64,000 bases of DNA from the NCBI GenBank assembly GCA_050230475.1, contig JBFLGF010000062.1, positions 1 through 64,000 of the forward strand, written 5' to 3'. The DNA is from Ancylonema sp. (lineage: Eukaryota). A program made the translations under genes and the position numbers. Numbering within the stretch: position 1 is the stretch's first letter; each line of letters starts with the position of its first letter. Shown here piece by piece: positions 5,819 to 54,956 of this stretch. The notes beneath the pieces are model-generated. The model was given only the letters and a program-made list of their open reading frames with translations. It made no database searches and was not told the DNA's origin.

Positions 5819-12127
<6,309 letters not shown>

Positions 12128-22166: not shown

Positions 22167-22577
22167 TGTACAGCGACAGTTGGAGTCTTGCCGCTTTCCC
22201 GATATTACGGGGGGTCGGTACGCAGCCAGTAGACAATTGGGCGGCGGCGGTTGGATGACGGTTGGAGGTGGCAGACAGTTGGCACCATGCCAGCCGCTGA
22301 GATTCTGGCGGTCGGGATCCACCCTACTCCCTGTACAGTCAGCGCAGCAGTAGACATGACGTGCTGGCCTAGCTTTTGACTCGACGCCATGGTGCCTACT
22401 TAATTACGTCCCAACCGATTCATTGCGCTTCTAAAAATCTGCGAGTATTGGCTTTTGCCGCGCCGTCAAACTTAGTTGTAGAGGCTGTACAGTATAGAAA
22501 GTCATTCGACTGCACATTGCTAATTCCGTGAGTCGCTGTTTTATACTGCCTATATTCACCCGGAAGTTGGTGAAGCC

Positions 22578-29942: not shown

Positions 29943-31311
29943 CATGCGCATACGTTTATCGTCATCCTTGTTCTGTTGTCTCGAAAGCTTCCCTTGTTCA
30001 AGGAGGGACGGGGTATAGACCATCTGCGGACATCCACACAGTATAGGTGGCGCAATCTCAGCCAATCGAAGACCCCCAACACTGAAGCATACAGGAGGAG
30101 CTCTGGGCTCTGGGCTCATTTTACACTTTGATGACTCAGCAACTCTCTGCCCCCGAGCCCAGTCCTCCCCCCAGCACTTTTGGAATGCAAATCAGTTCTA
30201 GTCCCATCTAAAAAAACTATTTAAAATGGGGTAAACATCCATACTTCCAGACCCCGCACGTATGTACTGCTATCAGTAATATCATTCTTTTTATTCCCCC
30301 CCCCCCCCACCCTTCATAATTTTACATTCTACATTATCCCAACGCTTTCACCCTCCCGTAACCCCTGTATAAAAAGCAATTCCTTCACCTCTTCTTTAGG
30401 GCCCCTGTCCTTCATAGTTAGCAGCATGCTGCTGGCCTTCGAAGATGCAGCGGCCACTATTCCACTCTCTGACACAGAGCCCATTCCAGCGGGCTCATCC
30501 CATTGGTCGCTCTGATAATGCTCCGTGTTGCCAGCTGGCGGACGGCCCAGCTCGGAAAACCACTGTGGAGGGTGGGCAGGGTGGGGGTTGAGTTTTTTTT
30601 GTTTTTTTTAAAGGTAATAAATCAACCTGGTTCAAGGGAGTTGATGAAGTACGAACTTGCTGAAGTGCTGAATGAGGGGAGCTGGAGTCTGAAGAGCAAG
30701 CCCTCGTTCAATATTACTATGATACCTCAAACACACTAGATATTCTTCGTTATGTCGGGTTTACGGAACCGAACACCACATAAGCGCACTGGGCGTCTTC
30801 TCACATGTTTTTGGATCTCCACCGTTGCCTTTTTATCCAGCTCCTTAACGTTATAGATTTTGTAGTATTGGCACAGGTCCGGCCTCCGCCCCCAAAGTGT
30901 TTGCAGCGAGTTTCGTACATCCTTTGAGAATCCAATATACTGAATCTTCTTGTTCGTGTCAAAGACGGCGAAAACGGAGGCCTGCGTCCCGCCCTCTATG
31001 TGTGGAATTATGTGGCCCTGGTTGTTGATGTACTTTATAAGGGGTAGGTCTGTGAGCGAGGGAATTCCAGGAGAAGATGTAGATGCACTTATATTCAACA
31101 AAAATCTACCACTTCTACATTTTCGGGCCTGTGATAAGAGGGGCACATGAGAAGTGCGGGACAGCTGCGAAAGAGAGATGTGGCGGCTGAGGCCCACGAA
31201 CGCCGGAGTCTGGGGCTTCTGCGTTCGTGATTTTCCATCACCAATATTTTCTGGAATCGAATTTCGAACTACATTTCCTAATTGGAGGTGCGTCTGGCAC
31301 AGGCACTCCAT
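29943..31311 (-). CDS. inverted partial duplicate of the GIY-YIG gene (exons 31311-30805, 30562-30389, 30023-29943), probably spliced to the NicO/UreH-like exon at 29597
   Basis: Exons 1 and 2 have the same lengths as in the parent (507, 174 bp) and no stops. Similarity includes intron sequence and ends at about 29989. Donor ATG|gtaagc at 29942 and acceptor cag|CTC at 29597 are both phase 0. Confidence 0.75.
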
Positions 31312-33149
31312 AACTGCACCAACTTTCGGGTGACTGTACAATTATCTACTGAGACAAAAGGTGTCGCGAGCACGGCATTACGATTTCTGGAGCGAGCTAC
31401 TCTCCATCTAATTGCAAGCGTGAGGAAGCTGGAAACCCTTCAACCGCTCAGCTCAGCTCAGCAGTAGGTACCGAGCAGGCGCCAGGCGCCATGGTTTCGG
31501 CATGGGGCTTTTTCGGGTTTTGGTCGATGTCCCTCTGCGGTATTTTCTAAGGTGATCAGTCATCATCTCTGGGCTCAATGGGCCTCATCAGTGTTTTCTG
31601 GGCTCTGGGCTCGCAAGGCTTTTTGTCCAGGGTCGAAGCGGGCTCCGAGGCCTGAACTCAAGAGCCTGCAGTCGGGTCCTGAGCCCAGATCGGAGCCCGA
31701 AACCCCTTCAATTGTCAAAAATCAAACCAGAAATTACCGTGATATAATCACTTATGATTGGCGGACAACATGTTCATGGTATGCACGCATGCGTCAAGTG
31801 AAATGTTGATCTAGGGCACTTCATCTTGAGAGTGTACTCGGATTGTGCAATTAGTATCATCAATGACACACACAATAAGGAACTCGTCTTGTGTACAAAA
31901 AAGGAATCCTTCTTCATATCGCTACTGTTTTTTTAAATTGGTGTCGGTTGCGTAAATTATATTCCACATCATGCTCATCGATTCCGCTCTTAGAGAGCAG
32001 TATTAAAAAAACGAAAAACATGTATGGGCGAGCACTCAAGTGATGATTTTTATACCGACCATACTTTGCTTCTAAGTCGATTCCTAAGTAATTATGGAAC
32101 ACGGAAGTAATCAATTTCATCAATTAACATTGAGTTCAAATCATTCATTCACAATCATTGAAACCGATTCCGTTTTTTTGTAATAAAATCTATGGAATCC
32201 CGGAATTCAAATCCACAAATCATCGATAATAATGTTTACGAATAATTGATAAATGACTTCGTTTGAGAAAGAACGGAATGGTTTTGAAAGCACAATACGG
32301 TAGCATAGTACGGTAGCGTTTCGGAAGCACATTGATTAAAGCAACGGGGCGGGCTTATTCTTCGTTGGCTTAGAATTACGGCCGCAGCAACCGCTCGCAC
32401 TTTGCCACCTTCAGCGACGCATACCGATGTTGGGCGACGAGCCCATCGGCTTGGATTCCGTATCCGAACGGATCCGAGCCCCAAGTCCGGTATCCGAGCG
32501 CCAAGCCCAAAATCGAGGCTCGAATGGCTTCCCCACTTTGGGCTCCGGGCTCAATGCGCCCCGATTTCCAAGGCACCGGGCTCATTGGGCTCTGGGCTCC
32601 CCAAACATGAAGGATAACTCAATACTATTGATTGTATTTCGGTTCTATCGGACAACGAAAAATCCTCTACAATTGAGATTGCATGGCCGATTGATTGCCA
32701 CCTTGCATAATATAGACTTGTAAGCATTTGAACTTCATATGAACTTGATATGCCTGATATGCACGTGTCAAAAAATAGTGAATGGCAGAGCCACCAAACT
32801 TGTGGTTTAATTGGGATGATAAGTGGAAAAAGCTTAGTGCAACGATGCGTATGCGGAGAATTATGGTGATCCGCAACACATGAATTTTCTTACAAGTGTG
32901 ATTCAGATTTACATGTGACACAATTTCTTGGTCTCGTAGACCATAACTTGCTTGAGTACCATGGCACATTGGTCCAAAATCTACACCTAGGAGCGGCATT
33001 TGAACACGAGTGGCATTTCTAAAAAATCGCATCGTTTTTATTTCAATCACTTCCCTACGAAAAGGGAATAATCGGTTCATTTTAACTACTTTGTCTAAGA
33101 ACGTGTATTTCCATTGTCCACTTGTCAATTCAGGTACAAAGTCACCGTA

Positions 33150-34435
33150 CCGTGCCGATGTAAGAATTTATAGATTATTGAAACCCGAATATTGTGATAG
33201 TTTTGTAGATGATGTAATCGCCAAATAAATTACTTCAAATCATTGACGTTAATGTTGCTTTTTGATATGCGTAGAAATCCCGGATTCAATTTGATCATTT
33301 TCTCGGAAATCGAGCGCGTCAAATGACATGTCACACGTGGGTAAGATAAATTATAGAACACACAATTGAGCTTATTTTTCCAGTCGACATTCCCTTTCAC
33401 CGTTGGGTATTGTTGGATCTAGAATATTCCTCGTGCACAAAGCCGCGTCTTTATTTCATAAATGCCAGCTTCCACTATTAGTTCACGTTTTTTTAATTTA
33501 AATATATTCTGCATTAACGATTATTTTTTTGCAATCTTTTTGAATTCTATCATCGTATCTTTTCGTTGTCAAGTGCACCATTCGCCTTTGACGTATTTCC
33601 AATTTTGTGTGAGCTTCGTGTCGTTCCATGAGATGTAAGCTTCTCGACTTTTTTGCTTGCTTGTGTGTGTTATCTGAATCCGAAGTGAACGGAAGCCGTG
33701 TTTCATTTTGCGTCCGCATCGTTGTAATAATGTCGTTCACATAATTATTGCTACGCTTGCAATTATCGTTACCTTCGCAAGAGATGTTGTCAACCGTTTA
33801 TTCACATCATTAGATCGTTACGTTGAAAGTTGCGCCGTTTTTTGTACGCTCTACTAGCTTATTCGCTCCATTCCATTTTGTTGAAGTCGTGTCTTTAACC
33901 TTTGAATCGTTTATTCATTGCATCGTTTGAGCTTGCAAACCGTTTAGCGTATTCTGAAGTATCAACCATTTTCAACACTTCCATCTATAGAAATTCATCG
34001 AACCTTTGCCCTGATGTCTTTTGAAACAATTGTCCACCGTTGCTGACATTATTCACTCGTACTTCTTGATACTTGGTTGTTACCAAGACCTCAAGTGTAG
34101 TCGGTTCGAGTGCATCTAATTATTCAGTGGGCATGAATTCTTCAATGTTCATACTTGTGAAGCACACTGATAAGTCACATATACTAGCAAAAAAACCATC
34201 CGCTGCTAATACCATTTGAGACCCAATCGTCAAATCACTCTACCATGATCAGATGATTACTCCAAAACTGGTGCAAGACGTTGCAAATTCCATGAAAGCA
34301 TCAACTACAATCCGTCAAATTCATCGGGGGGGGGGAGGGGGGAGCAGCTTTCCAGCTTTCCCCAAAATTTGTCAATTTTTTGGTTTTTGCCAAATTCCAT
34401 CGACAAGTTCCATGTCGACTCCATCTGGCGCGTCA
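33150..34435 (+). mobile_element. old degenerate solo terminal repeat (D) related to 50989-52421; left boundary approximate
   Basis: Colinear matches to C: TGCCAGCTTCC, AATTATCGTTACC.T.GCAA, TGTCA.CCGTTT, GTGCATCT, and the end CGACTCCATCT.GC.CGTCA. Confidence 0.65.
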
Positions 34436-37400
34436 ACGTCGAAAACGAGGTTAGATTGGGACAATTCCGATAATCGCATCATAGATCATATCACAATCTG
34501 AACGATAGGATAAAAACAGATGCGAACTCGACAATTTACTTCTAACATTAGAAGGACGTGAACGTTACAAGTTTCCACGGGTACATTAGACTTCCGCACC
34601 TACAATATCACTCCAAAAAAAATACATTTATGAACATCAGCACATGTTTGGACGTATTTTGACGTTGGAAACACATCACCCTGATTTTGTATCTCAACGT
34701 ATGATAACTCAACGTATTGTGCAACCTGGCCTGCTCCTGGAAAGTCACATTTACCTTCCATAACAAAATGAGAAGAGAGCACGTCATACAAATAGGTAAT
34801 GGTGCCATACCATTGAAGAGGTCTTACTCTTTTAGTGTCGTGGCCCTCATAAATGTTAATAGTCACCATTCCAGATTGCACTTCATATCTATATCGCCGG
34901 ATCTTGGTAAAGATGGCAACAACTCTCGAATCGAGTCGTCAAGGTGATCAATGGCTGATAGCAGTAGTAACAAGATGATTAACTGGAGGCATACGCGAGA
35001 TGAAGACCATTAATAATAGGTGTTGCCCTTTTGTGCTTCAACGAGACAACACGGACATGTACACAAAGGTGTCAAACAAACCACACATCCCATTTGTTGC
35101 ACCGACGAGGATTCAATGATCCGAAGTTCTTACGACACTTTGTGTTGAAGTAGAAGGACGAAAATACAAGACCTTGCATGACGCGAACTATGAGTTGACA
35201 ACATGATGTACCACAGCTAAAAGTTTGAATGTCCTCAGTATGATACAACAACCTCTCTAAAAGCGAAACCCTTGATTCATTTGTACATATCAATTTTAAT
35301 TGACACCGTCTCCCTTTTCCAAATGTTGTACAAGTCCTATACATCAAACCTCAAAAAAATACAACAACCAAAAAAACAAAAAAAAAAACAAAAAAAACAA
35401 AAAAACCAAAACGAGCATTCCCACACCAACACGGATTTATTTTGTACATCTTCGTTCACTACACTCCTTTCCTCACTGCTTCAATTTCTTCTAAGTTGCG
35501 ATGCCATCTTTGCCCCCACCAAAGTCCCTAATTCAGTCCTCCTCTGCCTTTTGCTTGTCCTTGGACAACAACCTCTCGTCCCACTCTCGCATTTCTTGTT
35601 TTTCCATGTCATCGAATGATTCCATCCTTTCTGCCCCATCGTCCTCTTGCTCATCCGTTGCCTGGAGAAGCACCACAAAAAGAGAAAAATAGCAAAAATA
35701 GCAAAGCAGGAGAAACAAGCACAAGAAGTGATGAGAAAAAAGTGGCATGCAACAATAATGGTGTCCACACTCCCCACCTTCCACAATTGCGTACCATACA
35801 GATACAAACCACAAACTTTGAGGAACTCTGTAATTTACATTAGTCTCCGAATTTTACACCCCCCCCCAAAAAAAAAAACAAAAAAAAAATCAAACAAACG
35901 AACAAACAAACAAACAAACAAACAAACAAACAACCAAACAAATAAACAAACAAATAGTAAACAAACAAACAAATAATCAACACATAACTAAATTTTAAAA
36001 CGTAACCGGAGAATCTCTAGTCTGGGCAACAAAATGATTTCGACTCCCATGACTCTGACTTTGACTTCGACTTTGACTTTGACTATGACTTTGCATTTAA
36101 CGAGGTGCTATTTTTTACGAAGTGTACATCTCTACAACCTCACGAGATACAAAAGCTCCCCGCTCCACCAAACACACTAAAAACACCTCTCGAGTGTTTG
36201 CCAATTCGTGACGTGCACTTAAACCCCGATAGAGAAGTTTGGCAAACTCCCATATTCGTCGCGACAGCATCCGGGTATCACCGTAGCGGGGAGTGAAGTT
36301 TACAAACAATTACAACGTCAACTCTACGTGGGTTGCCACAATCACAAGGGATGATGGTAACGAGGTGTGACTATAACGAGGTGTGATTGTAACGAGGTGT
36401 GACTGTACACCAAGGGGTACATAAAGTACTTTTGTGGATCCCCACTCCAGTGGAGGCCGATCTCTACAGCTACTATTTAGGAGGCCTACATAGTTCCCCC
36501 TATGGTTTCTTACCGCGTTCCCACTGCTAGACTCCTTCCTGAAAGAGGCTAGAGACACCAAGTGGGTCGCATCTTCCGCAAACTTCTCCACCTGCGAATG
36601 GATACACCTCGATGCCGATTCCGATACTGATTCCATTCTCAGCACACACTTGGTCGAAACAGAATTGGTACTTGAGGATGATGGAACCGCAAATCAGGAT
36701 CATTCAGAGTTGTGCACTTATAGCCAGCAGGAGCAGTGGACAGCACGACGAGAGAAGGACATTTCGAGATTCATACTCGTGCCATGTGATGAGGGCAGAG
36801 GGCAAAGGGGGGAGGGGAGGGCAGAAGTGATAGGGTCCTTTAGGGGGGAAATAAACGGCTTGGTTTGTAAGGCGTATCAGACCAACATACATATGTACGT
36901 AAACTCACAAGTACATACGTACACAGATGTATACACAACCGCGTCCCTATTATACGAAATACACACAAATGCATATTCAGTTGCACATATGCATAGATAG
37001 ATAATGAAGGGTGTTGGCGGTTGAGTTCCATGGGCTTCATAGGGTTCTGGGTTCAAACAAAATGATTGGAACCGCCATGGAACCAGCACGGGGTTAAGAG
37101 ACACCCTTGTACAGGCACAGGGTACAGTTGACCATTTGCTGTTCAGATTTGGATCTGAACCCAGTCATGCAACTCTGACTCAGACTCACTCTGGATTACG
37201 TGTCAACTGCCAACTGTCAATGGTTAGCTGTGTGGTCGACTGCTTTTCTTTCTTCGAATTCAGAAGACCAAGACGGTACATTTTGGTCTCAAAAGAGGCC
37301 TCAGCTTACAGCCACTACCTCCACTCTATTGGGATCTATAGTGTGCACTGAATAGAGGGTCGGTGGCGGTTAGAGGAAGAACCAGATATAAGAAACGTTG

Positions 37401-38290: not shown

Positions 38291-38699
38291 ATCCGGTTTT
38301 TTTTCGGTTTTTTGTTTATTTTTTATTTTTTTATTTATAAAGCAGTCCACTCAGAGGAGCACCAGGTTGGAAGTCAACTCCGAATCCAGTCTGTAGGCAC
38401 ACCCTGCCATACTGCCATACTGCCATTTGGTCCACCTGCCCATTCTTGTTCTGAACCCAATGATGGAAGAGGACAGGACACACCAAAAGCTGACTGCTGT
38501 TTGTTTCTGGCGTTTAAATTTATCATTGATGGGTGCACATATCAAGTAGGAGTGCCTAAATAAAATACAATACAATACAATATACAATACAATATACCAT
38601 ACAATATAGCCTAAATACACGTAGAGCATTTTTGGTGCTTATAAACCCATGGGCGCACATGCGTATACTGACAGCTGTACAATATATGCCCATTAAGAA

Positions 38700-40330
38700 G
38701 TATTTGATTGCACGGCGGTATGCCCGGTCTTTTTGCTGTTGGTTTGGAGTTGGTATGTATTGATGTGTTTTGAGTAATGTCATGGTAGCATTTCCATCCC
38801 AAATGTCAACTTTGAGGTCGTTAGGTAGTGGTGTATCTTGGTGGTGGCTGAGGTAGTATGATGGTGATACTTGAAGAGTTGGAGATGTCTCGAAGTAATA
38901 ACATGGTGTTTTCTCCCCCAGTGTCTCAATCTCATGGTTGTCTGTAGTGATTTCGGGTAGTGGACATCGGCTACATCCATCCGCGTTGGAGTTGGCTATG
39001 CCAGGGCGATGAAGAGTGCCCAGAGTGCCAATTTACCCGTAAGTTTTGTAGTAGTCATTATCCATTTGAGTGGGGCATGGTCGGTGATCAAGATAAATGG
39101 TTTTCCAAACAAAAATTGTCTGAAATGTTGTGCTCCCAAATGACTGCAAGACACTCGCCATGGAAACTACCGTAGTTTTTCTCTGCGTTGTTGCACCTGC
39201 GGCTGGCGAATGCGACTGCATATTCTTGTCCTTCTTTGTCAACTTGACTGAGTACCGCACCTAATCCATGAGCACTCCAATGTGTAGCCAGAATGTATGG
39301 TAAGTTGGTATCAGGTCGTCTAAGGACAGGTTCATAACAGAGCTTGGTTTTTAGTTCTTTGAATGCAGTATCTTGAGAGTCGCCCCACTGCCATTTGACA
39401 TCACCTTTGAGAAGCTCATTGAGTGGTAAAGCAATTTTGGAGAAATGTGGTACAAATTTTCGGTAGTAGGTAAATAGTCCCAGAGCTGCCCGTAGTTGGT
39501 GAATATCCTTGGGTGCAGGCATATCCTAGATTGCTCGGGTTTTCTCATCTTGTGGTGCAATGCCTTTACCGGAGATCTTATGCCCTAAGAAATCCATTTC
39601 ATCTGCGAAAAATAAACATTTTCGTGGACGACATTTGAGTTTGAATTGTCGCAGGCGATGAAACACTTGACGTAGATGTTGAATGTGGTATTCGTGCCGC
39701 TCCAGTTACTGATGTCATCAAGATAGCACCGTGAGTTGCAAAGACCAGCTAGGATGCGATCCATAGTGCGTTAGAAGAATGGAGGTGCGTTTTTCAATCC
39801 ATATGGTACGACATTCCATTCATATAGTTGGCGGTCTGCTCCCCAAAATGCAGTTTTACATTTTTTTTCCTCAGCGATTGGTATTTGGTGATATCCTTGC
39901 CGGAGATCCAGTTTGGTAAAGATCTAAGCATCCTTCATATTGAGAAAAATGTCCTCGATGCGTGGTAATGTTTGATTGTTGATAGGGCGGTAATCTCCAC
40001 ATTGACGATAGTCTGTGTAGTTGCCTTCTTCATCCTTTTTGCGAACAACGACTGTGGCGGAAGCGTAATGGTTGCTATCGCTTTTTCGGATCATTCCAAG
40101 TTCCATAAGTTTTTGACAATTTCCGCGTACAAATCCCCATTCCGCCTATTTCAGACAGGCGGTGTGAGTTTTGGAAATTTGGTTGTGTAGTTTGGAGTGG
40201 TATTTCCACAAGTTTATTGCTAGAAGGTAGTAGTTTTTCTAAAGAAAATGCGAAAACATCTTTGTTTTCCTTGAGTAGTTCAATGACTTGTAGCTTTTGT
40301 TCCTTTGTCAAGTTGTTTCCTATTTTCCAG
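38700..40330 (-). pseudogene. Ty3/gypsy reverse transcriptase-RNase H of element A, with stops, frameshifts and deletions
   Basis: YRQCGDYRPIN, LPRIEDIF, TKLDLRQGYHQI, KTAFWG, PYGLKNAP, CYLDDI, FLGH, ALGLFTYYRKFVPHFS, GLGAVLSQ, AFASR, EKNY, ITDH, NADGCSR. Confidence 0.92.
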
Positions 40331-40614
40331 GTAATAGGTTCAGCTTCTGTGGTAGGATTGTTGTCGTGTGGTTATGGAATGACATTGCCATATGTAACCG
40401 TTGTAGATTGGTAACTTGTCTCAAACAATAGTGCCAGAGTCATGGAGATAGCATCGTTCCGAAGTTGTGGTTCGTTGTCTGGTACAATATGTGAATGGTC
40501 ATGGTTTGGGTAAAATGTAGAGGTGTGGTTATCATAGTGGAGTGTATGATAAGCTTGTGGTATTTGGTATTTCCCACCCCCCCTATCATTGGTTGAGAGG
40601 GTGGGGTCCGATTC

Positions 40615-42039
40615 CTATATGAGGTTATATGATGGTATCGCATGAGTTGCCACTATCATGCCCCTTAACCATTTTTCCATGTTGCGATCCATAGTGATGC
40701 CCAAAATAACTTTGCGTTGGTCTTCTCTGATGCCTGGTGCACATGTGTCACCGTTTTCAAACCCCATGAGTCTCTTCCGTTCCCATAAGTTTGCTTCTTC
40801 CCAACGCTGTGTGTCGACGTTGTAAAGCATGCCTGGTCCTGGTTCTTTCCAACGTTGAAAAGTGAACTGGTAGCTGTCTGGGTAAGACACCAGAGTAGGT
40901 CGTGCACGGCGAGGTCGTCCAGCTTTGTTGACTGATGTAAATGGTGGTTGGTCATCGGTCAAGACTTTGTTGGGTCTATGGTGTGGTTCCAAAATTTTGT
41001 GAAGAGGTAGTAGGTTGGGTTCATCTGGTATAGCGAGTTCCAGAATGTTTGGTGCTAGCAAGTTGGTCCATAAACAGCGGACTCTGTGTGCCGTGCTACC
41101 AAAGCTGCATGCATCGACCACTGCTGGAAAGCCTAGAAAAGACTTGATGAGAGTAGTGGTATCCTTGACTTCTTTGATGAGGTCACCGAATGGGTATGTG
41201 TTTTCAAGTACGAATACTGGTGGAATTTTTTGTACTTTAATCAGATGGTTGAGGTAGCGAATCAAGTGGAAAAAGAAAGGAAATATACGGTCGTAATATC
41301 CTTTGCCTTGTCCTACCTTGCTGATCATCTGGCATTCCCATCCTGCGAATATGAAGTCTATTGGTCCTCGTTGTGCAATGAGTCTGTCCAAATCGTCGTT
41401 GGAAATTTTTGAAATGTCATGATCGAGACGTGTGTCAAACCCTTTGATTGCACTCGTGGGTAGTAGTCCGGGATAACGAGTTTGTATCTTTGGTAAGAAA
41501 GCTCTGGTTATATCTTGAGCATCTTCATCGATATCTGTGTTGGTGTAAGTGCCAATCTTCTTGCCTTGTTCGACAGTCATTATGGCGTCCCTGCAACTCA
41601 TGCCTCCAAATGGTTCCCAAACATGTAGTCCATTTTGCAGTGCTTTGGGGTCAAAACGTGCGGTGTAATCCGGTGTTATAGGAACCGCATCACGAATCGG
41701 TATACCTTTCCATTCAGTCCATGGTGGTAATGGTGATGTTCTGGCTTTGTCTATGGCATTGCGCAAATATGAAGCATTGGTAATGCGCAAAGTGTTGAGG
41801 CGGTTGGTTGCATGGTGTTCGTTAACTTGGTTCAGACATTTCGCAACCATGTTCAATTGTGGTCGACTGGCTTGACGAATATTTGTATGTTTGGTGGTGG
41901 CGAGATAGACCATGGTATTGGCTTCCCATTCTTGCAAGTTTGGTTCATATGGTTGTTCTTGAGATGCATCAGATGAGTATTCTGGTTCAGAGTACAAACC
42001 ATTGCTGGCAATGTTGAATTCAAATGCGGTGAGTACATC
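40615..42039 (-). CDS. C5-cytosine DNA methyltransferase domain within the element A polyprotein (between protease and RT)
   Basis: Motif I VWEPFGG, HDISKI (III), motif IV IFAGWECQ (catalytic Cys), motif VI FVLENT, motif VIII AHRVRCLWTN, IX ERKRLMGF, X ILGITMD; open over about 470 codons. Confidence 0.9.
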   Translation of the reverse strand, partial: DVLTAFEFNIASNGLYSEPEYSSDASQEQPYEPNLQEWEANTMVYLATTKHTNIRQASRPQLNMVAKCLNQVNEHHATNRLNTLRITNASYLRNAIDKARTSPLPPWTEWKGIPIRDAVPITPDYTARFDPKALQNGLHVWEPFGGMSCRDAIMTVEQGKKIGTYTNTDIDEDAQDITRAFLPKIQTRYPGLLPTSAIKGFDTRLDHDISKISNDDLDRLIAQRGPIDFIFAGWECQMISKVGQGKGYYDRIFPFFFHLIRYLNHLIKVQKIPPVFVLENTYPFGDLIKEVKDTTTLIKSFLGFPAVVDACSFGSTAHRVRCLWTNLLAPNILELAIPDEPNLLPLHKILEPHHRPNKVLTDDQPPFTSVNKAGRPRRARPTLVSYPDSYQFTFQRWKEPGPGMLYNVDTQRWEEANLWERKRLMGFENGDTCAPGIREDQRKVILGITMDRNMEKWLRGMIVATHAIPSYNLI

Positions 42040-43699
42040 TGTCATGACGCTAGAGATAGCTAAGGCGAAACCCCTCTAGATTGATCAAGAACCCCTCTAG
42101 ATTAATACTCTGCTATAGCGAGAGTATTGCATATAACGATTTTCTAGAACTAGTACTTTACAAGAAAAATAGTGAAGTATGAAATTCGTACGACTCGAAA
42201 ATAACGTGTGGCGTATTTTCCGAAGTCTAGAATCCAGCAGTCTTCAACAAATAGGTGCGTGTCGATTTTGTTAAAATCGCAAGTCTCTTTAGACTTGTCG
42301 ATAATCCCGGCGATTAAATCCAACCGTAGAACTAGAGGAATATCTCGCGCCGCTTTCATCGGAGCGCCGAGATTAATTGTAATTTTCTAGAAGCCAGCCT
42401 CTCGCTATCTTCGACAGTTTAACTCTAGTTAACTCTGCCGGTTAGCACCGCGCAACAGCTTTGTGATATAAGTCAAATTGTACTTTCAGATCTGGCAGCT
42501 TCCGCTGTCAGATTGTGTTGTTAAGAAGTCCCTTCCAACAATATTTTTGTGTTATCTGAATCCTTTGCAATTCTGTGAACATTGCATCCCTTCGTTTACG
42601 CGACTACGCAACGTGCTCGTCTTCCGACTCAGCCTGACATCCGACAGCCAGTCGGTAAGATTGCAAATCATTCGTTGCAATCTGTGTGTGTGTGTATTTG
42701 ATCTGATTCATCTAAATCTGTTGCTGACGCTCTTTCTAAGCCAGATTGTTAATCGACTGTAACTTCTTACATCGATTCGCTGACGCTCTGTCTGAGCCAG
42801 CAAGCGTGTGTGTGTGTTAAACATCTGTCGATTTGCTCGCGTTCGCTCCGAAGCGGAAATTTCATTTGTGTGTGTGTGTTTGTTGTCGCTCGCTCCGAGC
42901 CAGCATCTGTTGTTTACACCTGTCTGCTGACGCTCTTTCTGAGCCAGCATCTTTTATCGACGCGCCGTCGATACTTTGCTTTCGCACCGAAAGTAACTCT
43001 TACGGCTGTTAACCTTGATAGTCTGCTCCAGACTACCAGACTATCTTGTTTGCTTTATAGTATTTTCACACTATAAACCATCTGTTAGGCCCTCGGCGTT
43101 ACGTAGTGAATTTCACCAGACCGCTGAGACGTGTGATAGATATGATATTGATATCTCAGCAGAGACTCAATCTGCAGTACTACTTACTTCAATCCGACCG
43201 CGGAAGACCTTGAATTATCAACAATTTAAAGTCTGAAAAGGTAAATTGCCTTAAAAAAAAATTGTTTTTTTTTGGCAACTTTTCTTCTACTATTTTGTAT
43301 TCGATGTGCTCGCAAGAGTAGTGCATGCAGTGGTCACGAGATAGTAGAGGGAGATTAACCAAACTGGAGATAACTAAATCTGCTGAAATTATCGATCGAC
43401 CAGCTGCACCAGCTATCGACAAAAACTGTCCACGATCACCGGACATTGATATAATTAATATCGAATCATCAGCTGCACCAGTTGTTGATACTTATATTCA
43501 TACTGATATTGACAATTCAGCTGCACCAACTGTCAATATCTCGGCATTCCATCTGCCTAGTACCCTTCTCGATAACGATTCTACAACCCAAATATAATTA
43601 ATATTTGAACCCAACAAATTGACATGTTCTACATCTGAACCAGAACAATCTTTGGAACGCCTACCTACAGGCTCCATTAACTTGAAACTTGTTTTGATT

Positions 43700-46694
43700 A
43701 TTGACACAGACGACCACATCGTCGACACCACAACATCTGTGGCTGGACCATCGACCACTGTTCTCACTACAACGCCACCAAGCGCTGCAACAACATCCAT
43801 TTATCGACACAAGATAGATAAAAGGTGGGACAGACTCTACCATGGCCAACCCAACGCCACTACCGACATATACTAGAGAAACTGGTGTCAAACAAGATGA
43901 GTTCATCGATAGTTTGAGACAGTTAGACCGAACCCAACAACGCGCACAGCGTATGGGGCATGTACAGTGGGACTGAGTACTTGCAGCAGGTCAGTATATG
44001 AAAGGAGAAGCTCATCGAGAATGGCAACAGTTTGTACGTGACAACCGTGGTACTACTACTACGGAAGATATTCGAGATATGTACCGTGAGCATAATTCCA
44101 ATGTCGCATATTATCGTCTGCAAGGTAGACAGGATGGACAACATGCACCGATCAAACCCACATTATCGGCAGCAAAACCAACATAACTGGACTTGTTCAT
44201 CACTACCATCAAAAATCGTTTTCGAACTTCAGCTGCAGAATTTGTCACTTAGATCGAAACATTTTCAGCACGACCCAACGACTGTGTTGCAACCACATTT
44301 GCACGCTCTTTAACGACCCAACAACAATTGTTCAAGAGGCAGGAGCCATGACAGAAGAACAACTGGCTAGGAGGTATATACCACATATTCCTCTACCACT
44401 ACAGTCTTATATCGACGACTGGCATTTTCGAGAATCAGAGGAAGGGTACTACAAGAATCCACCGGATCCTCCTATTACCAAGAAGGAAATTATGGAGAAA
44501 GCTAACAAGGCTGAATTACTACGTATGAAACAAGACGCGGAGAACCGCGCAACCGGGATCACCAGATCTCCTAAACTACCTTCATACACTCCATGTACTC
44601 CATACAATGCTCCTAAACCAACAGGCGTATTGACACCACGACAGGATAACAGCATGGAATGCTATAAGTGTCATCAGACCGGACACCTTTCGCGTGACTG
44701 TCCTGCACCAAGGAAACAAAACAACTTTCAGTCATCAGGTTACCAATCTGATAAAATTTCCAAAACCAACCAATCCTCAGGATCATAGTTTAAGGGAGGT
44801 GCGTACCGTACTGAAAACATACAAACTTTCAAACCACGACCTCGCCAGTTTGATGCAAAACAGTACACCGCTGATGCATTCTGTGAATACTGCAAAGGTA
44901 AACACCACACCCGAGACCAATGTCAGAAACTTGCCAAGGTACAGAACTTCCTAACTCTCAATACACCACCCAGTGCAGATACCCAACCCAAACAAATCGT
45001 GGAAGACTCTGAATCCTGAGACGCAGACAAGTTACCTGGCTATGCAAGTAGACGACTTGGCACGCCAACGAGAATTCGAAAACATGTCGCACCAAACAAC
45101 GGACTCTGAGATCGCAGAAAAGGCACATGACAACGCGGTTGCACTTGTCAGCTCCATGCAAGAACCTGCAGCCCAATACACTACCAATCAGGATTTCACC
45201 ACTACTTCACCACGCAACTCTCAGGACACCAAATATGCTATCCAACATAAGGAGAAGAAAGCCACAGCAGACCAATCTGCGAGAGACAGTGAATCTGCAC
45301 GTGTCGGCCCACGCCGTTCCATTCAATTCGGCTCCCAACCTGAGGAGGCCGTCTTGCTTACTTTACCACCGGTCAAAGCGGTAGCAGGTGATTATGAGGA
45401 TAAATATCCCCTTACACCTGGCTCCACGCGCATTGACCCTCCACCTGAGTTCACAACGGACTATGGGGAAATACAAGAAACTGCGGATACACCTCACCAA
45501 TCAGTAGTACGCAAACGATTGGAAATCGAGGACAAAATCAAGCGCAAATGCATTCCTGAGGCACTTGAACAAGCAAAGTTTATAGATTTCAACCAACCCA
45601 TCTCACCTCGCAGCACTGTGTGTCAAACATTCTTTCGCGCTGCTGAGTTTGAAGATGCACATACTCCTATGGAATTGGATACCTCAACAATTATATCCTT
45701 AGACATTTCAACCAAACCTATATCACCTCAACATTCGCTACCTACTTCTGACACTCAATTCCTTTCAAACATTCTTTTTGATACAGACCTTTCTCGGGCT
45801 GACAACGACACCTTCGAACCAAATGAGCTACACGAGCTCACTAAGGACGACTTTCGAAACCGATACCACGCTATGATCTCGCAACAGAAAATTTCTCGAG
45901 CAGTCGTCTTCAAAGCAGCCAAAATAAAGGCAGAGGTAACGATTACACGAAGAATATCATAACTCATCAACGAACAAAAATCGGTGCTTCTCTGCAAGGA
46001 TGTGCAAGCAGATGTCGACATCGCCGCAGCTCGGGAGGAGGAAAAGAGCAAATGGATTCAGCAGTATGATCTTCTAGTGGATACACTCCATTCCAAATTG
46101 GAAGACAAGATGCAGGACCTAGTCGTTCTTCACGCAACGTAACTCCAAGAAGTTCGCTAGGAAGCTGCTCGTCTGGAACAGAGGCTACAAATGGAGATTG
46201 GCAAGAACGTACTGCGCGGCGAACATTCAGCACCAATTCCCAATTCCCCACTTACCAGCTGTGCACCCTCCACATCCATTAGTTCTGCACCTTCTCCTGC
46301 TGCCAGCACCCCTACCCAACCAGGGGGTGATACCATGGACACCTCGGAGGCCATAAAACCTCCTACAACTGCTGCGTGCAAACGGGAGGCGTATTCCACT
46401 CACCCCATTTTGATGGATAGTCGGCGGTCTACACCTACAACTCCCAACTCTTCATCCCAATTACCCAATGCACAAGACCCGGGACAATCCATTGTCAAGG
46501 CGATGGAGAAGGAAGCTGTGAAGAACAAACCACTCGGTGCCTACGCACACCTGCGCGACCCAAGAGACAAAACCGACGTTGCTCAACGTCTGGCACGCAC
46601 GAATACCAATGTGTCAGATTTTACCTTCCGTCAACCATTCATTCGACCGGCTATGGCTGTTAGGACCCTCGCTACAATCACTAGGGCTCCCTAG
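43700..46694 (+). pseudogene. gag-like ORF of element B plus a long uncharacterised extension, interrupted by stops
   Basis: CCHC knuckle CYKCHQTGHLSRDC (~44660), a second knuckle FCEYCKGKHHTRDQC (~44880), then consecutive ORF fragments 44973-45962 and 46191-46694. Confidence 0.75.
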
Positions 46695-47110
46695 CGAGGT
46701 CCCCACACTTAGCGCTAGAGCGCTACTAGCTCAGTTTTCCCAATAGCGAGTTCTGTCCCTATAGAGTGGGAGTTGTGTCCCTAGCGGCCGCCTGGCCCCT
46801 AGAGAGTATTCTGGTGTGTCCTTCGCTACGGCAGTAGTGCCGTTAGCCAGACTTGATGTGTCCTTATCATATTAGTGTGAGTTATCCCACTTGTAGTCAT
46901 GGTTCAGACTTCAGCCAGTTCCTATATCTAGTCGAGATAGGAATGCCTTTAGAGCATTCCTATCAACTCTTTTGCACTCCCGATTATTATCACCACCATT
47001 TCCCATCGGTCATACAATCTCATTCATTCGGCATTTCGCCATCTTTCCGCTTGGTGCATATCGCAACTTGCTTGCTAGGGACGCCTTTTGCATCCGTCCC
47101 TAACATAACA

Positions 47111-48442
47111 ATGGCGCATCTCCTCAGCATGGGCGCCATCCCGAAGGCTTTCTCCGGAGCAGACCGCAGCAAATTAGCAGATTCCATCTACGCGCCAGAC
47201 ATCCTGCATTACGGAGACGCCCGAGAACATCAGGCGAAATGACCAAAATTGTCTTCGTGAGGCACACCTCAAGTTGGCACATGACTATCAACCAATCCCA
47301 CCATCTATCAAATGGTGTGGTCCTACATTTTAAGGTGCATATGAACTACCTCGTACCATCATTTCCACGCAACCAGCTTCTGAGGCTCGTGGCCTGCACA
47401 TCTACATCCCCTTCGGCAACTTGGAGATTGTGGAGATATGTCTGGAGGGAGGCTCCATTGTTTCCAACGTCACGCCGCAGACGGACTGCATCCACACCAA
47501 AAACCGCTACCTTCAAAAGCTGCGACAACTTCAACTCCGATTTCCAGACCAGCTGCCGAACTCTGCGATCGAGCACTGTGATGAAATTCTGTCTACCAGC
47601 GTCACCGACACGACAACATAGTAGATGGACGCACTTTTCCGTCAAAAAGGCCCCTTCGACGTAGTCGGTGGTAACTATCACACAGAGGTGGATCGCACCT
47701 ACAACCCTCTACGTGGCGGTCAAGACCATCGCCTCGCTCCACTCCTCGTTGTCATCAAATGGATGCACTACAGCGCGCGACTCGCACAATTCTACCCGGT
47801 GCACATTTTCTACACCCACATCGGCACACCCGAGTACCCTCCTTGGGTGGACGCCCTGTACCACGTGGCGCGTGCATTCCTTGGCAACGCTGCAAATCTC
47901 CAACCACTCCAGTTCCAAGGCCACGTACATCGCCCAACCCAGGTGTGGACCAACTGCATCACACCACGCGAGCTGGAACTTGCGCAACCCCACAAGATAT
48001 GGCAGACCCGGGAGCCTCTGCAGAACCTTCTGCAACCGGGGCACACAGCTCAGATCTTGACACTTCCCGACCCGGTGAACCATCACCGCATGGGCAACCG
48101 CTTGGCTATTTTTCCCACTCTGAGTCCTTACCTCCGGACAACCAACTATACGTTGCGCTCGGATGGACGACCCGGCATCGGTATGCTGTTCGATGCACCA
48201 TCTCAGTAGTACGTGCCACCTTCTCCATTCGAGATCGAGCAAGCTCTTGGACGACCTGTGGGATACACAGCACATGGCCGCATCACCGACGCCATGCGCG
48301 CTGCTCATCTGGGCCACATGATGGACGGACGACTCATCATGTTCCTGGAGGAAATCCTCCAGGGCACCAAACCATAGGAATCACCCCTCACCTCGGAACA
48401 CAGGTATTTACCACCCTCGACTCTGGGGGGGAGGGACACTAG
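47111..48442 (+). pseudogene. divergent, catalytically dead DNMT-like ORF of element B
   Basis: Colinear with the element A DNMT: GLHIYIPFGN/GLHVWEPFGG, RFPDQLPNSAI/RYPGLLPTSAI, QKGPFDVVGG/QRGPIDFIFAG, AFLG...HRPTQVWTN/SFLG...HRVRCLWTN, RPGIGMLFD/EPGPGMLYN, LGHMMD/LGITMD; a few stops. Confidence 0.8.
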
Positions 48443-49260
48443 ATCCTCTGGTCAACAATTTTCAACCAATCCTGTCAAACCACACGGACGGAACAAATCC
48501 AAATCCAAAGTCCAAAGTCAAAACCAAACTACGGGCACACCCACTACAGTCAAAAGTCAACAAAAAAATATAGGACCTAACATGGTATCGAAACCCGGTC
48601 CACGACCACGGTCCTCAAATTCAGCTAAACCAACCGAATTAAGGCCTAACAACTCAACGGTCAAACTTGATCTTTCTGGTCCACGACATTCTCGTCTCCG
48701 GTCCGTACCTAGTCAACAAAGTAACACTCGGAATCAGTCTACAACCATCCCGGACCTACCAAACATCACTTGGATATCAAACAAACCAAGACGACAATCT
48801 CAACCAACATCTCATGCTGCCTCTTACCACACGAGGAAACACCATAAAAAACAGCATGAAGATTTTTTTGTCATCAACCACACTTTTCAATACCAACCAT
48901 CGGAACCTACTTCAGTACCACCTGTACAACTACATTTTTCTTTATCACCATATTCTACCTCGCGATCCACACTCTCGGATTCTCTCAGCATACCCGATAG
49001 TCTACCCGACTTGCTAGAAGTACCATCTTTTCCTGATTATGAACATACCGTTTATACATATTTGGATGATTCTAACATTCCTACCTATACTCAGGGATGT
49101 ACACTTGACCGTGATGCATTGTTCGCATTATTAAGCACAAGGTGACCTACCACTGCTGATCATCCCAGTTCTGCAACTCAACCACGGCATACTTTTGTCA
49201 CATTCTTATACAATCTCGTCTGCTGCTGTTTCCCAGCTCCTTCACAAGCGTTCCACACCT

Positions 49261-49272
49261 GGGGGGGGGGAG
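49261..49272 (+). promoter_or_regulatory. polypurine tract of element B
   Basis: GGGGGGGGGGAG immediately before the TG of repeat B1. Confidence 0.8.
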
Positions 49273-50988
49273 TGAGAGCAGCCGGACCACCGAGTCCACC
49301 TGAGACCCTTCGATCACCTACAAACATCATCTATACCAACCCAGTCGACATCATCACTACACCACCGCGTGCATTACCACATGCATCATTATGAGAAACA
49401 TCCGGGAACAAAGGGAACAAAGTATGAAGAATATAATTTCGGGCGGCCGACTCCAAACAACACGTCACCTGTCATGACGCTAGAGATCGCTACGGCGAAA
49501 CCCCTCTAGATTGATCACGAACCCTTCTGGATTACTACTCTGCTATAACGATAGTATTGCATATAACGATTTTCTAGAACTAGTACTTTACAAGAAAAAT
49601 AGTGAAGTATGAAATTTGTACGACTCGAAAATAACGCGTGGCGTATTTTCCGAAGTCTAGAATCCAACAGTCTTCAACAAATAGCTGCGTGTCAATTTTG
49701 TTAAAATCACAAGTCTCTTTCGACTTGTCGATAATCCCGGCGATTAAATCCACGTAGAACTAGAGGAAATATCTCGCGCCGTTGTCATCGGAGCGCCGAG
49801 ATTAATTGTAATGTTCTAGAAGCCAGCCTGTCGCTATCTTCGGCAGTTTAACTCTAGTTAACTCTGCCGGTTAGCACCGCGCAACAACTTTGTGATAAAA
49901 GACAATTTGTACTTTCAGATCTGCCAGCTTCAGCTGTCAGATTGCGCTGTTAAGAAATCCCTTCCAACAATCTTATGTGTTATCTGAATCCTTGCAATTC
50001 TGTGAATATTGCATCCCTTCGCTTACGCGACTTCGCAACGTCTCGTTTCCGTCTCCTGACATCCGTCAGTAGCCAGACGGTAAGTTTGCAAATCATTATT
50101 TGCAATCTGTGTGTGTGTGTATTTGATCTGATTCATTTGAATGTGTTGCTGACGCTCTTTTTAAGCCAGCTTGTTAATCGACTGTAATATCTTACATCGA
50201 TTCGCTGACTCTCTCTCTCTAAGCCAACAAGCGTGCGTGTGTGTGTAAAGCATCTGTCGATTTGCCCGCGTTCGCTCCGAACCGGCAATTTCATTTGTGT
50301 GTGTGTGTGTGTTTGATGTCGCTCGCTCCGAGCCAGCATTTGTTGTTAACACCTGTCTGTTGACGCTCTTTATGAGCCAACATCTTTTATCGACGCGCCA
50401 TCGATACTTTGCTTTCGCACCGAAAGTAACTCTTACGGATGCTAACCTTGATAGTCTGTACCAGACTATCTTGATTTCTTCATAGTGTTTTCACAGACTT
50501 TTGTACTATAAACCATATGTTAGCTCGCCTTCGGCGTTAAGTAGTGAATTTCACCAGACCGCTGAGACGTGTGATAAATATAATATTGATATCTCACCAC
50601 AGACTCAATCTGCAATACTACTTAGTGAGAGCAGCCGGACCACCAAGTCCACCTGAGACCCTTCGATCACCTACGAACATCATCGATATCAACCCAGTCG
50701 ATATCATCACTACACCACCGCGTGCACTACCACATGCATCATTATGAGAAACATCCGGGAACAAATGGAACAAAGTATGAAGAATATAATTCCGGGCGGC
50801 CGACTCCAAACAACACGTCACATCATCGTCCTCAGAAGAATGTCATAAAGCAAGATTGGGTTCCTGCATGAAAGTATCTACTGAAGTATATGTCACTCTT
50901 GTCGTCATGTATTGACATTAAATACTTGCAGCATGTGGTATACTGTATCAAACTGGTATCGATTCTTTCTTGTGTCCTCCGAGATCCC

Positions 50989-52421
50989 TGTCATGCCGCT
51001 AGAGATCGTTAGAAAGCAAAGTCTTTTTAATTGTCGATCCGCTTGAAAAATAGCAATTTTGGTAATTGTCGATTTTTAGTCGTTATGTTAGTCGTTATAT
51101 TGAACTCTGTCGTTATATGAGTTTCAATCAGTCAGACGTTTGATTTGATAAAAAATTTATACTCAGTCAATCTAGAAAAATCGATGTACCACTTTTTAGA
51201 TTTTAATTCGGAGTATTCGAGTTAGTAGATTCCCAGTGCGCGAGCTTTATTTCAGTCAGCCAGCCTGGCGTTTGAACCGCCGCACGTGTTAAATCTATAA
51301 CTCTAGACTAGACAGTCACGATTGGTTGTCTACTCCGATATTTTTTTTCAACCATAGATCAAGATAAGGATCTAGATTACCGCGCGTGTGAAACGGCGCG
51401 TCGATTGTACTAAAGCCTAAGTCGCTTTCTAAACTGCCAGCTTCCGCTGTCAGTTTACGCTGTTTGAATCACAACAACTCTTTGCAATCGCCATCTTTGC
51501 AATCTTTGTGAATTCGTGTATTCTGCAATCGTCAACAATCGTTATCAAGTGTGCCGTTTCGCCATTGATACTTTGTCTCTGATTTTTGCAAACTTCGCGT
51601 CGCTCCATCCAGCCGTAAGTTCTGCGAAATTGCCTGTTTGCTTGTGCGTCGCATCTCAAGTAGTACAAAAATTCGTGTGCCGTTTTGCATACGCATCGTG
51701 TGAAATTCTGCCGCAGTCATAATTATCGTTACCCTTGCAAAATTTTGACCCTTGCAAGTCGTTGATTGTCAGCCGTTTCGCTGACTTCAGAAATCGTTAC
51801 AATTAGCTGCACCGTTTCGTGCGAGCTCAGTCAAACAATTCACCCTTTGAATTGCCTGCACCCGTTCCAGATCTAGTGAATCGTTTTATTCACGACAACG
51901 TTTGATTCCCGAAACCAATAGTGAGTGCGCACCCCGTCGCAACTAACTATCATTCATTATGCACCCTTGTATAAATTCTATAGCTATTTGCCTTGCGTTC
52001 TTTTTAATCGTAGCTGTCACCTGTTGTGAAGTACGATAACCTGCAACGCTTGATTAACCATAGTGTTTTTTATAGAATTCCCACCACTAAGCGTTGAGTG
52101 CATCTCAGATTTCGGCGAGTAGTAGCTACGGCAAACTTCGTTGATAAGTCATATACCGTGCTTGAATTACATTCTTGTGTGGTCAGTAGGGATTCAACCT
52201 ACACCAAACTACTCTAGTGAGATCCAGATGATGACCGTAGGCCCAATCCTGAATCTCCTCATCCAGACACGCAGCCAAGTCATCAACCAACAACCGTCAC
52301 TTTCATCGACGCAGAAAAATATAGAAAGTCAAGTTTTGCAGATTTTTCCAAAATCTGTCGATATCTTTATTTTTGAGAGATTTCGTCGACAGGTTGTCTG
52401 CCGACTCCATCTCGCACGTCA
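50989..52421 (+). mobile_element. element C: solo A+B terminal repeat of a related family; TSD TCCC
   Basis: TGTCATGCCGCTAGAGAT...GCACGTCA with TCCC on both sides; internal A/B junction ACTACTCT-AGTGAGA (~52217). Removing it restores the host frame RVDW-DLGGHKK. Confidence 0.88.
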
Positions 52422-53700
52422 TCCCAGTCCACCCGGTAATGAAATTCTTGAATCCAAGGGTCAGTGATTCCTCCGATGGGTGCGAAGAATGTGGTGCCAA
52501 GAAGTACGTCGAATTTGTCAGATGGTGAGAGATGTTGTTTGGTCTGTACATAAGTCTGGTTATGTCCTTCTCCGATTGTAATAGTACATTTCTTTTTGGT
52601 TGTGCCCAATGATTGATGACTTTTGCCTTTAGAAATAATATATTCAATGCCTTGTTCCAAGTCAGTTGATGTGAGACCCAATTGTTTGGTAAACCTGGAC
52701 CCAATCATGACATTCTTTGCTCCTAAATCATAGATGAGAATTGTTGGTGGTTCCCCTCCAATGGTGATGATCCCTTTAGAATTGTCAGTTTTTGGTACAT
52801 GCCAATTGGTTGCCAGTCGTGCGTCACATGGTATTACTCGTGGTTTGTTGGTTTGTGGTCCTGCAACAGATAGAGCAGGGTTTGGGTTTGGCATAGGTGC
52901 CTGTGGTGGATATGTATGAGGTGGTGGTACATCCCCATGTGGTGAATCCAGTAGTAAATTTCTGCGATGAGGACAATTTGACATAGTGTGTCCTTTTTGT
53001 CCACAAAAAAAACATTGTACCTCTCGCATGGTAGTATCATAATGGTGGTTGTGGTCCTGGTCCCGATAGTCGTATTCTGGTAGTGTCGTACTTCTTGTTG
53101 GAAGAAGTTCACATTCTGTCTCGTGGTCTGAAGTTCTTCTGACCTCGTTGTTGTTGTGAGGCGTAGCAGTCCAATTGAGTGATGTAGATGTGCTCATTCG
53201 CTCGATGATTGTTTGCACCACTCGTTCTAGCTGGGTGTCAAAAATGTGGATGGCGAGGTCTGGTGTAGTTTCGTCCATTGGCATCGCTGAGTAGGAGACT
53301 GCGTTGATTTCAGCAGTAGCGGTGTCGATGATGTCGTTGATGTTTCGTGTAACCATGTTGTCTTTCCATTGTTGCTCATCTGTGTGTAGCTGTACTGCGA
53401 GATGATTTGGAAACACTTGCTCCCATTCCTGTAGTCGATACTTGCATTAAATTTGAACATGGTCCATGATTGTTTCCTGTACCTTTGGTGCAAAGGCTTG
53501 GATGACCGTAGTGTGGGTCTCAATCTGTTCCGCTATCTGTCCAAGTCTGAAGTATCGGAAGTCGGAACTGATGTTGGTTGCTTTCTCACTCATGTCTTTC
53601 TATTAGTATATATCATTGAGTTTGGATTCTGCTACCGAAGCTTGTTGTTGAAGAAGTGTATTACTCGTTGCTTGGTTGACAGCACTGATCATTGAAGAAA
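52422..53700 (-). pseudogene. gag (zinc knuckle)-aspartic protease region of element A
   Basis: ORF 52367-53416: CFFCGQKGHTMSNC, ILIYDLGAKNVMIG, FDVLLGTTF. Confidence 0.85.
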
Positions 53701-53781
53701 CTGGTAAAATAAAAAATGGTCAAATTCTGGTAATAAAATGACTTTCTGCGATAAAAAGTCTTCCGCTGGTGTGATTGAAGT

Positions 53782-54956
53782 TGGGTTGCAAAAAGAGTCT
53801 CTGCTGAGAATTAGGTGTTCCGCTAGTTCTATCACACTTTCTCGTGCGTGAATGTGTGGAACACTACTTGACGCCGAGGGCGAGTCGACAATTACTATCA
53901 ACAATAGAAAGTCTAGACAGGATGATTGATGGTAAACAGAATATTCTGGTGTCGAATATTAGGGTCGACAACCGAAAGGTAAACTTCCGAGTAGAAAGTT
54001 CGGCTGTCAAACGGTGCGGTGAGAGATGATAATTGATGGATGTGATGTGCTGGTTCAGTTAGAACGTCAGCAAGTGGTTGCGCGTCGTTATCGTACTAAC
54101 TCAGTACGAGCGTAAGTGAATCGACGTAAATCGACAAGAGTAGTTCTCGCTCAGTAAGAGCGTCAGCAACGTGGTATATGATTATGGCTGGCTCCGTAAG
54201 AGCGTCAGCACAAAGATGTGATGGTAAACAACAAGTTTACACGCTGGCTCAGTGAGAGCGTCAGCGAAACAACACAAGTAATGACAGGAAGTTGAAGTTG
54301 CGAAGGTCACTTCGGTCAACTTACAGAATTCGTCGACGGTAGTCGCACGAGAAATCGTAGACAAGACACGAAGATAAGGGCAAGAACTAGCGTCAGCCAC
54401 GAGTTGCAAAATTCAGATAACATAATTGACAAGATTTCTGAGAAAATATCTTGAAAGTTTCTTGACGGCGCAATCTGACAGCGGAAGCTGGCGGATCTGT
54501 ACAATGAAAAATGTATGTATGCTACGATCGTCAAATCGTAAAACTAACTAGAGTTAATCGACATGGTTAATCGACAGGCTATACTCTAGAAAGTTCTATT
54601 TAATCTTGGCGCTACAAATATAGACGTCAAGTATTCTACGGCTGGATTTTATCGCCGAGATAATATCGACAAGTCAGAAAATATCATCGTCGATAACAAA
54701 ATTGCGCAGAGCGCTGAAAAGTCGACACGCACTCTTAATTGTACGACTCCTGGATATTACAGTCGGAAAATTTGCCACGCGTTATTTTCGAGTTTACAAA
54801 AAGTTGTTAGATTTTGCGGAGTACTGATTCTAACTTCACACCAAATCATGAAATCGCTATATCGAATCTGTTTGCTTATAACAAGGTATTTTACTAGAAA
54901 GGACTGGATATTATTACAAAGGGATTTTACCCTTAACAATCTCTAGCGTCATGACA
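53782..54956 (-). repeat. 5' terminal repeat (A part only) of element A
   Basis: Shares the start TGTCATGACGCTAGAGAT, GCCAGCTTCCGCTGTCAGATTG, GCTGACGCTCT motifs and the end CTCAGCAGAGACTC...ACTTCAATC with A1 of element B. Confidence 0.85.

Follow-up and report, generated by a model that had tools for sequence, protein, structure and literature searches.

Closest described systems

The closest described systems to the retroelement studied here are two gypsy elements with unusual repeats. One is KnitGypsy-Dnmt3 of Klebsormidium nitens, which combines a DIRS-like repeat structure with gypsy domains (Fig. 4c legend; de Mendoza et al. 2018, PMC5890265). The other is Gypsy-7a of Chlamydomonas reinhardtii, in which the left long terminal repeat (LTR) is without the last 8 bp of the right LTR (Fig. 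6A legend; Craig et al., PMC9940879). We analyzed 64,000 nucleotides of Ancylonema sp. DNA (assembly GCA_050230475.1, contig JBFLGF010000062.1, positions 1 to 64,000; the window). The window contains element B, a dead, nonautonomous member of a Ty3/gypsy lineage whose copies are laid out as A-internal-B-GC-A-B, where A and B are the two parts of a split direct repeat. Element B is gypsy by the proteins of its relatives, and its layout is not that of a canonical LTR element. An earlier, sequence-only reading of the window knew of no description of this layout in a gypsy lineage. The apparent novelty did not stand, as the layout is already present in the parts of PMC5890265 and PMC9940879 cited here. 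Element B belongs to a new and decayed family; its kind is known but has not been explained, and the copy is ordinary for its group.

KnitGypsy-Dnmt3 resembles the elements of the window in its gypsy domains and its A-coding-B-A-B order. It also has a C5 methyltransferase in the polyprotein region, as does element A of the window; the corresponding region of element B is degenerate. Unlike KnitGypsy-Dnmt3, element B has neither reverse transcriptase (RT) nor integrase, and the catalytic motifs of its methyltransferase-like region are lost. The available text of PMC5890265 reports no element ends, spacer, duplication, or primer site, and it offers no mechanism. The likeness to the Gypsy-Dnmt3 group is one of layout and methyltransferase presence and does not imply membership of the Dnmt3 clade. 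A preprint (10.64898/2026.05.21.726589) also names Gypsy-DNMT3 and does not discuss the repeats in its available passages.

Gypsy-7a is active in lab strains, and 86 new insertions were reported in one Chlamydomonas lab strain (PMC9940879). We inspected the entries for gypsy families 1 to 22 in the repeat library of that paper by eye. The layout, recognized by a repeated LTR tail and GC ahead of the right LTR, was clear in 12 families (2, 3, 5, 6, 7, 8, 9, 10, 11, 14, 18, and 22) and probable in 1 (family 21). Eight families were ordinary (1, 4, 12, 13, 15, 16, 17, and 19), and family 20 could be assigned to neither class. In these library entries, Gypsy-7a and its sisters resemble element B in that the left LTR is without the tail of the right LTR and the internal entry ends with a G-rich tract, the tail copy, and GC. 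Their domains are gag, protease, RT, RNase H, PHD, and integrase. They differ in the length of B, which is 6 to 8 or about 50 bp, compared to 197 bp in element B. In families 7, 8, and 9, B is just 6 to 8 bp, and the internal entry starts with a TGG-type primer site, whereas self-priming is predicted for element B. REM1 is also said to be a PHD-bearing gypsy element with unusual repeats.

Two further systems share parts of this arrangement. PAT, TOC, Ngaro, and VIPER elements have split direct repeats in the order A1-B1-A2-B2 in the sections of PMC4157794 consulted. Unlike them, the elements described here combine a gypsy RT, a DDE integrase in relatives, TG...CA ends, a 4-bp duplication, and a polypurine tract, and no recombinase was found. 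In foamy virus and human immunodeficiency virus type 1 (HIV-1), the palindromic end-to-end junction of two-LTR circles can be cut by integrase, according to the portions of PMC1180852 and PMC4372172 consulted. In those viruses, cutting regenerates ordinary LTR ends by a side route, whereas here the junction is inherited and fixed, and the route would be obligatory. No proposal of a mechanism for the layout was found in the literature consulted, with subscription papers, theses, and Repbase reports outside its scope.

Anatomy of element B

Element B (42040-50820) contains A1, about 6 kb of internal sequence, a run of 10 G's, B1, CC, A2, and B2 (Table 1). Its termini are TG...CA. The left end is repeat A alone, so the element does not have two complete identical LTRs. 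Self-BLAST and alignment bore out the A1...B1-A2-B2 layout of the sequence-only reading, together with the CATC duplication and the B1/A2 junction CACGTCA-CC-TGTCATG (49461-49476). Self-BLAST matched 42036-43186 to 49466-50624 for A1/A2 (89.8% with gaps) and 49271-49468 to 50624-50821 for B1/B2 (96%). In the global alignment, A1 and A2 differ by 77 substitutions over 1130 ungapped columns (6.8%) and by 14 indels, and B1 and B2 by 8 substitutions over 197 columns (4.1%). No significant difference was seen between these divergences (Fisher p=0.16), which is what a single insertion event would produce.

Both duplications (CATC and TCCC) have an A before them and could be taken as 5 bp long, a reading that was considered and rejected. 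In other copies, the loose ends start directly after 49467 and stop directly before 49470; the ends are therefore CA and TG, and the duplication is 4 bp long. The chance of a 4-bp match at both two-ended elements of the window (B and C) is about (1/256)^2.

Table 1. Coordinates of element B, its parts, and the neighboring elements in the window (X1 and X4 are public DNA runs, described in the text)
Feature	Position	Strand	Evidence
Left target-site duplication, CATC (4 bp)	42036..42039	+	Sequence; 2 X1 contigs with the empty site (joint 42034->50820)
Repeat A1 of element B; starts TGTCATG, end not CA	42040..43185	+	Self-BLAST, alignment; unrelated flanks
Conserved motif inside A, complementary at 15/17 to the bases that directly follow A1; predicted self-primer at the 5' end of the RNA	42499..42515	+	Duplex -22.4 kcal/mol, 0/60 shuffles as good
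Predicted primer-binding site directly behind A1	43190..43206	+	Complementarity, contigs
Decayed gag of element B with CCHC zinc knuckle	43870..44990	+	PF00098 E 2e-6; stops, frameshifts
Nested 453-bp TG...CA insertion, 5-bp duplication ATGGC	46658..47110	.	Sequence; joint 46652->47111 in all four runs
Degenerate C5-methyltransferase-like region of element B; catalytic PC and ENV motifs replaced	47388..48395	+	tblastn E 6e-14, 27% identity; alignment
G-run polypurine tract, 10 G, abuts B1	49261..49270	+	Sequence
Repeat B1, 197 bp, ends CACGTCA	49271..49467	+	Alignment
Spacer (2 bp) where the two ends meet at the inner junction; CC in element B, GC in family	49468..49469	+	Alignment, contigs
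Repeat A2	49470..50623	+	Self-BLAST, alignment
Repeat B2, ends CA; joint with A2 without extra or lost base	50624..50820	+	Alignment; same A|B joint in X4 contig
Right target-site duplication, CATC	50821..50824	+	Alignment
Element A, host of B and C, including repeat A (54956-53778)	38600..54956	-	Open reading frames (ORFs), Pfam, tblastn, RT tree
Element C: solo A (50989-52215) plus B (52216-52421), sister family, TCCC duplication	50989..52421	+	Alignment
Element D: decayed A+B-like remnant	33293..34447	+	59% identity to C, 1232 columns, score 357 versus shuffled maximum of 50

Ends across the family

Public DNA contigs from four runs (X1 to X4) were matched to 49225-49560. X1 and X2 are from one sample, which may be the source of the window, and X3 and X4 are from one other study; the four runs represent three samples. 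Among the loose ends listed, unrelated flanks were found before the TG of A in 56 contigs of X1, 42 of X2, and 3 of X4. Unrelated flanks after the CA of B were found in 26 contigs of X1 and 25 of X2, again among the loose ends listed. The agreement of these unrelated flanks was 0.35 to 0.53. The layout that starts with A and ends with B is a family trait, as had been proposed. A minority of copies within the family may start with B.

The junction-crossing contigs carry G at 49468 (91 contigs in X1, with 94% of summed depth, and 52, 24, and 9 in X2, X3, and X4). The family spacer is thus GC. The 2-bp spacer seen earlier at B1/A2 is present, but CC is private to element B and was rejected as the spacer of the family. 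Pattern scans for the A start retrieved 2 viral and 22 metagenome stretches, none like the element B family.

Coding content and integration enzyme

Element B encodes a decayed gag and the methyltransferase-like region. Seven polyprotein queries gave no match for RT, RNase H, or integrase in 43187-49270. The internal region of element B, with the methyltransferase-like region included, is deeply covered by contigs, so the enzyme may be dead throughout the family and not just decayed in this copy.

Element A starts with TGTCATG at 54956 on the minus strand, and its repeat A is followed directly by internal sequence. It encodes gag, protease, a C5 methyltransferase (42075-40615; PF00145, E 1e-5), and RT-RNase H (40130-39008). 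It breaks off near 38600, before the integrase, and its 3' repeats are missing from the window. The A-only 5' end claimed for it earlier holds, although its full layout is unseen. Its RT is of the gypsy type, which agrees with the earlier assignment of the family to gypsy-related retroelements.

The RT-RNase H tree was a quick one. It had 175 rows, was midpoint-rooted, and contained no DIRS outgroup or DIRS-type RT. Element A fell in a 12-row clade with an SH-like approximate likelihood ratio test (SH-aLRT) value of 100. H2C2, rve, and PHD domains are present in 9 of the 11 other members, and the remaining 2 end before the integrase. One protein, P0216, shares the order of element A (protease-methyltransferase-RT-RNase H-integrase-PHD). 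Locus L028, a relative on a contig from a prokaryote genome bin, is 46 to 54% identical to element A in RT-RNase H, and element A is nested among rve-bearing polyproteins. The named members of a wider 154-row clade (98) are from Klebsormidium, Closterium, Marchantia, Calypogeia, Scenedesmus, and Haematococcus. Such relatives suggest that the host of element A is a green alga or a bryophyte. Two K. nitens proteins are inside this clade with element A; they are not identified as KnitGypsy-Dnmt3.

A profile search with the methyltransferase of element A retrieved 803 proteins. We scanned 23 long ones, taken from the best 150 of the 803, and found the H2C2 integrase domain in 21 and rve in 20. No tyrosine recombinase family was found in these 23 proteins or in 17 scanned relatives. 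None was found among 29 ORFs of the window, among the matches listed (120 of 1507), or among the long ORFs of L028 or L034 that were scanned. A recombinase may still be encoded by a separate ORF on contigs outside this set. The domain content supports the view that autonomous relatives of element A would use a DDE integrase and not a tyrosine recombinase, which had also been the earlier expectation. Word-based protein searches, which are weak evidence on this point, retrieved no longer relatives of the methyltransferase of element A or of the methyltransferase-like region of element B.

Another methylase family was also seen. This was PF05869, which we take to be an adenine methylase family. 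It occurs with PHD in the gypsy polyproteins P0262, P0266, P0267, and P0276, which are outside the C5-methyltransferase clade and may be compared with the DAM-LTR elements in the available passages of 10.64898/2026.05.21.726589.

Inner junction in relatives

Relatives with DNA were retrieved as contigs inside prokaryote genome bins, and 11 loci were examined. Five integrase-PHD loci reach far enough behind the G-run (L028, L029, L032, L033, and L034). All five contain GACA-GC-TGTC 60 to 250 bp behind it. L029 has a complete 3' end with PHD, G-run, B1 (106 bp), GC, A2, and B2. The other four show the junction only. L028 is a collapsed, circularly assembled contig, and B in L034 is about 246 bp. 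The junction is absent in L025, L041, L043, and L045. Three of these were placed in the tree; they are outside the clade, and their repeats are of the plain paired or terminal kind. L030 and L031 stop shortly after pol and are outside the junction count; the pattern match there is inside an ORF. Three loci came from viral contigs, and none of them fell in the element A clade where placed.

The loci L028 to L052 include gypsy contigs inside bacterial or archaeal genome bins. These are apparently eukaryotic contamination, of algal or plant origin. L028 has one in-frame stop (3489-3491) between its gag-protease-methyltransferase ORF and its RT-integrase ORF. Many of its relatives have separate RT-integrase ORFs of about 1050 amino acids. 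This suggests stop read-through.

Proposed integration route

The G-run abuts B1, the predicted primer site abuts A1, and the repeat that is copied by reverse transcription would be B+spacer+A. This supports the B+A repeat of the sequence-only reading, with the spacer added. The best pairing partner of the 18 bases behind A is a motif 460 bases inside A in element B, 466 in element A, and 175 in L028. Each pairing was better than 60/60 pair-shuffled controls. Families A, B, C, and D all retain the motif, and the rest of their repeats is 55 to 66% alike. In element B, 43186-43189 is a 4-bp duplication that is missing in 40 contigs of X1. Tf1 is a self-priming retroelement (PMC6317226, in the part consulted). 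The pairing fits a predicted Tf1-type self-priming from an RNA that would start inside A.

We think it probable that the ends of the complementary DNA (cDNA) are joined and that a DDE integrase then opens the inner CA-GC-TG junction. The RNA would run from inside A1 to inside A2. Minus-strand synthesis would be primed directly behind A1, by the predicted self-priming, and plus-strand synthesis at the G-run. Ordinary reverse transcription, as established for LTR elements, would then give B-GC-A-internal-B-GC-A, a molecule without TG...CA at its ends. Repeat A does not end in CA, which leaves the predicted right end of the linear molecule without an integrase site. Standard reverse transcription gives no template for B2, so B2 must come by an end-to-end step, and its joint is exact. 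In that step the last base of A would be joined precisely to the first base of B, in a two-LTR circle or a head-to-tail dimer. A staggered cut at the left junction, with GC dropped, would give A-internal-B-GC-A-B and the 4-bp duplication. The enzymes may be supplied in trans by relatives like element A.

Several points weigh against this route or against its extension to other families. The data are DNA contigs, from which the circle, the cDNA end, and the RNA end are all inferred. A circle would hold two equal CA-GC-TG junctions, and the opening of just one lacks an explanation. L032, L033, and L034 have no clear equivalent of the self-priming motif. The family-wide layout is read from contig flanks among the loose ends listed. 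The window has no integrase, since element A is broken off and element B is nonautonomous. The Chlamydomonas families are likened by layout and domains and not by a shared RT clade with element A.

The circle opened at the internal B|A site, as proposed from the sequence, is one way to the observed product, and an RT jump would give the same one. RT may jump from the template end onto the start of B and so add B (and GC) behind the A of a linear cDNA, in which the integrase would then trim both inner sites without a circle. The A|B joint is exact in elements B and C and in the X4 contig. Host end-joining is usually less clean than this. The jump would also account for the use of only the junction near the left end. 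It would need the removal of a flap of up to about 250 bp at the internal site (see the B lengths of element B and L034), however. We regard this route as unlikely, though it is the strongest of the alternatives.

Copying as in PAT or Ngaro is less likely still. The RNA would run from the A1 start to the B2 end, the inner B1-GC-A2 would serve as the template for circle closure, and a DDE integrase would open the circle. This would regenerate the GC spacer, and the repeat order equals that of PAT, TOC, and Ngaro (PMC4157794, as cited above). However, the positions of the G-run and the primer site define B-GC-A as the repeat that is copied, and the RNA is predicted to start about 460 bp within A. 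In several Chlamydomonas families, a B of 6 to 8 bp also offers little length for strand transfer.

Insertion of circles in trans by the tyrosine recombinase of another element is very improbable. The repeat order is that of tyrosine-recombinase elements, and element B has no encoded integrase of its own. However, the 4-bp duplications (CATC and TCCC) are unrelated, the ends are TG...CA, and the relatives have DDE integrases and no recombinase family. That the copy of element B is a tandem insertion, a recombination product, or an assembly error is scarcely credible and largely refuted, since, for all its location in a nested, decayed cluster, its A1 and A2 differ as given above, a single duplication flanks the unit, and four runs as well as distant relatives show the junction and both termini again.

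Neighboring elements and other features

Element C is a solo A+B with its own target-site duplication, as described earlier. It may come from A1 x A2 recombination, as was then proposed, or from cutting of both junctions. Copies of family C elsewhere have joints of B end to A start with a GC or GA spacer in contigs. The left end and duplication of element D were sought and not found. The nested insertion in element B is likely an ordinary solo LTR of another family. It has the highest contig depth of the region, and its 5-bp duplication contrasts with the local 4-bp ones.

Host genes are also present in the window. An inverted duplicated gene pair (22556-23961 and 29989-31333) is about 79 to 84% identical and encodes a plant-like host ORF with no Pfam family. 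Fragments of serine carboxypeptidase genes (PF00450) are at 7341-8075 and 15395-15916.

Implications for the gypsy group

Two-LTR circles are usually seen as by-products of LTR retroelements. We hold it an evenly balanced proposition that an old and widespread gypsy group of the green lineage (chlorophytes, streptophyte algae, and probably liverworts) has its integrase sites inside the copied repeat. Such elements would integrate only via an end-joined intermediate opened at the conserved palindromic CA-GC-TG. Two-LTR circles would then be their obligatory precursor, and they would be the first LTR retroelements of this type. The range of B lengths (6, 8, 50, 106, 197, and 246 bp) would reflect an upstream drift of the polypurine tract away from a captured circle junction. 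The group would have converged on the PAT/Ngaro layout without a recombinase.

If true, this would be a natural case of a DDE integrase acting on an inner junction, with obligatory passage through a circle. The active Gypsy-7a makes the circle route directly testable. Search programs that require a pair of full TG...CA LTRs (as in the consulted part of PMC6317226) would likely miss members with a long B. The group thus may be undercounted in algal and bryophyte genomes.

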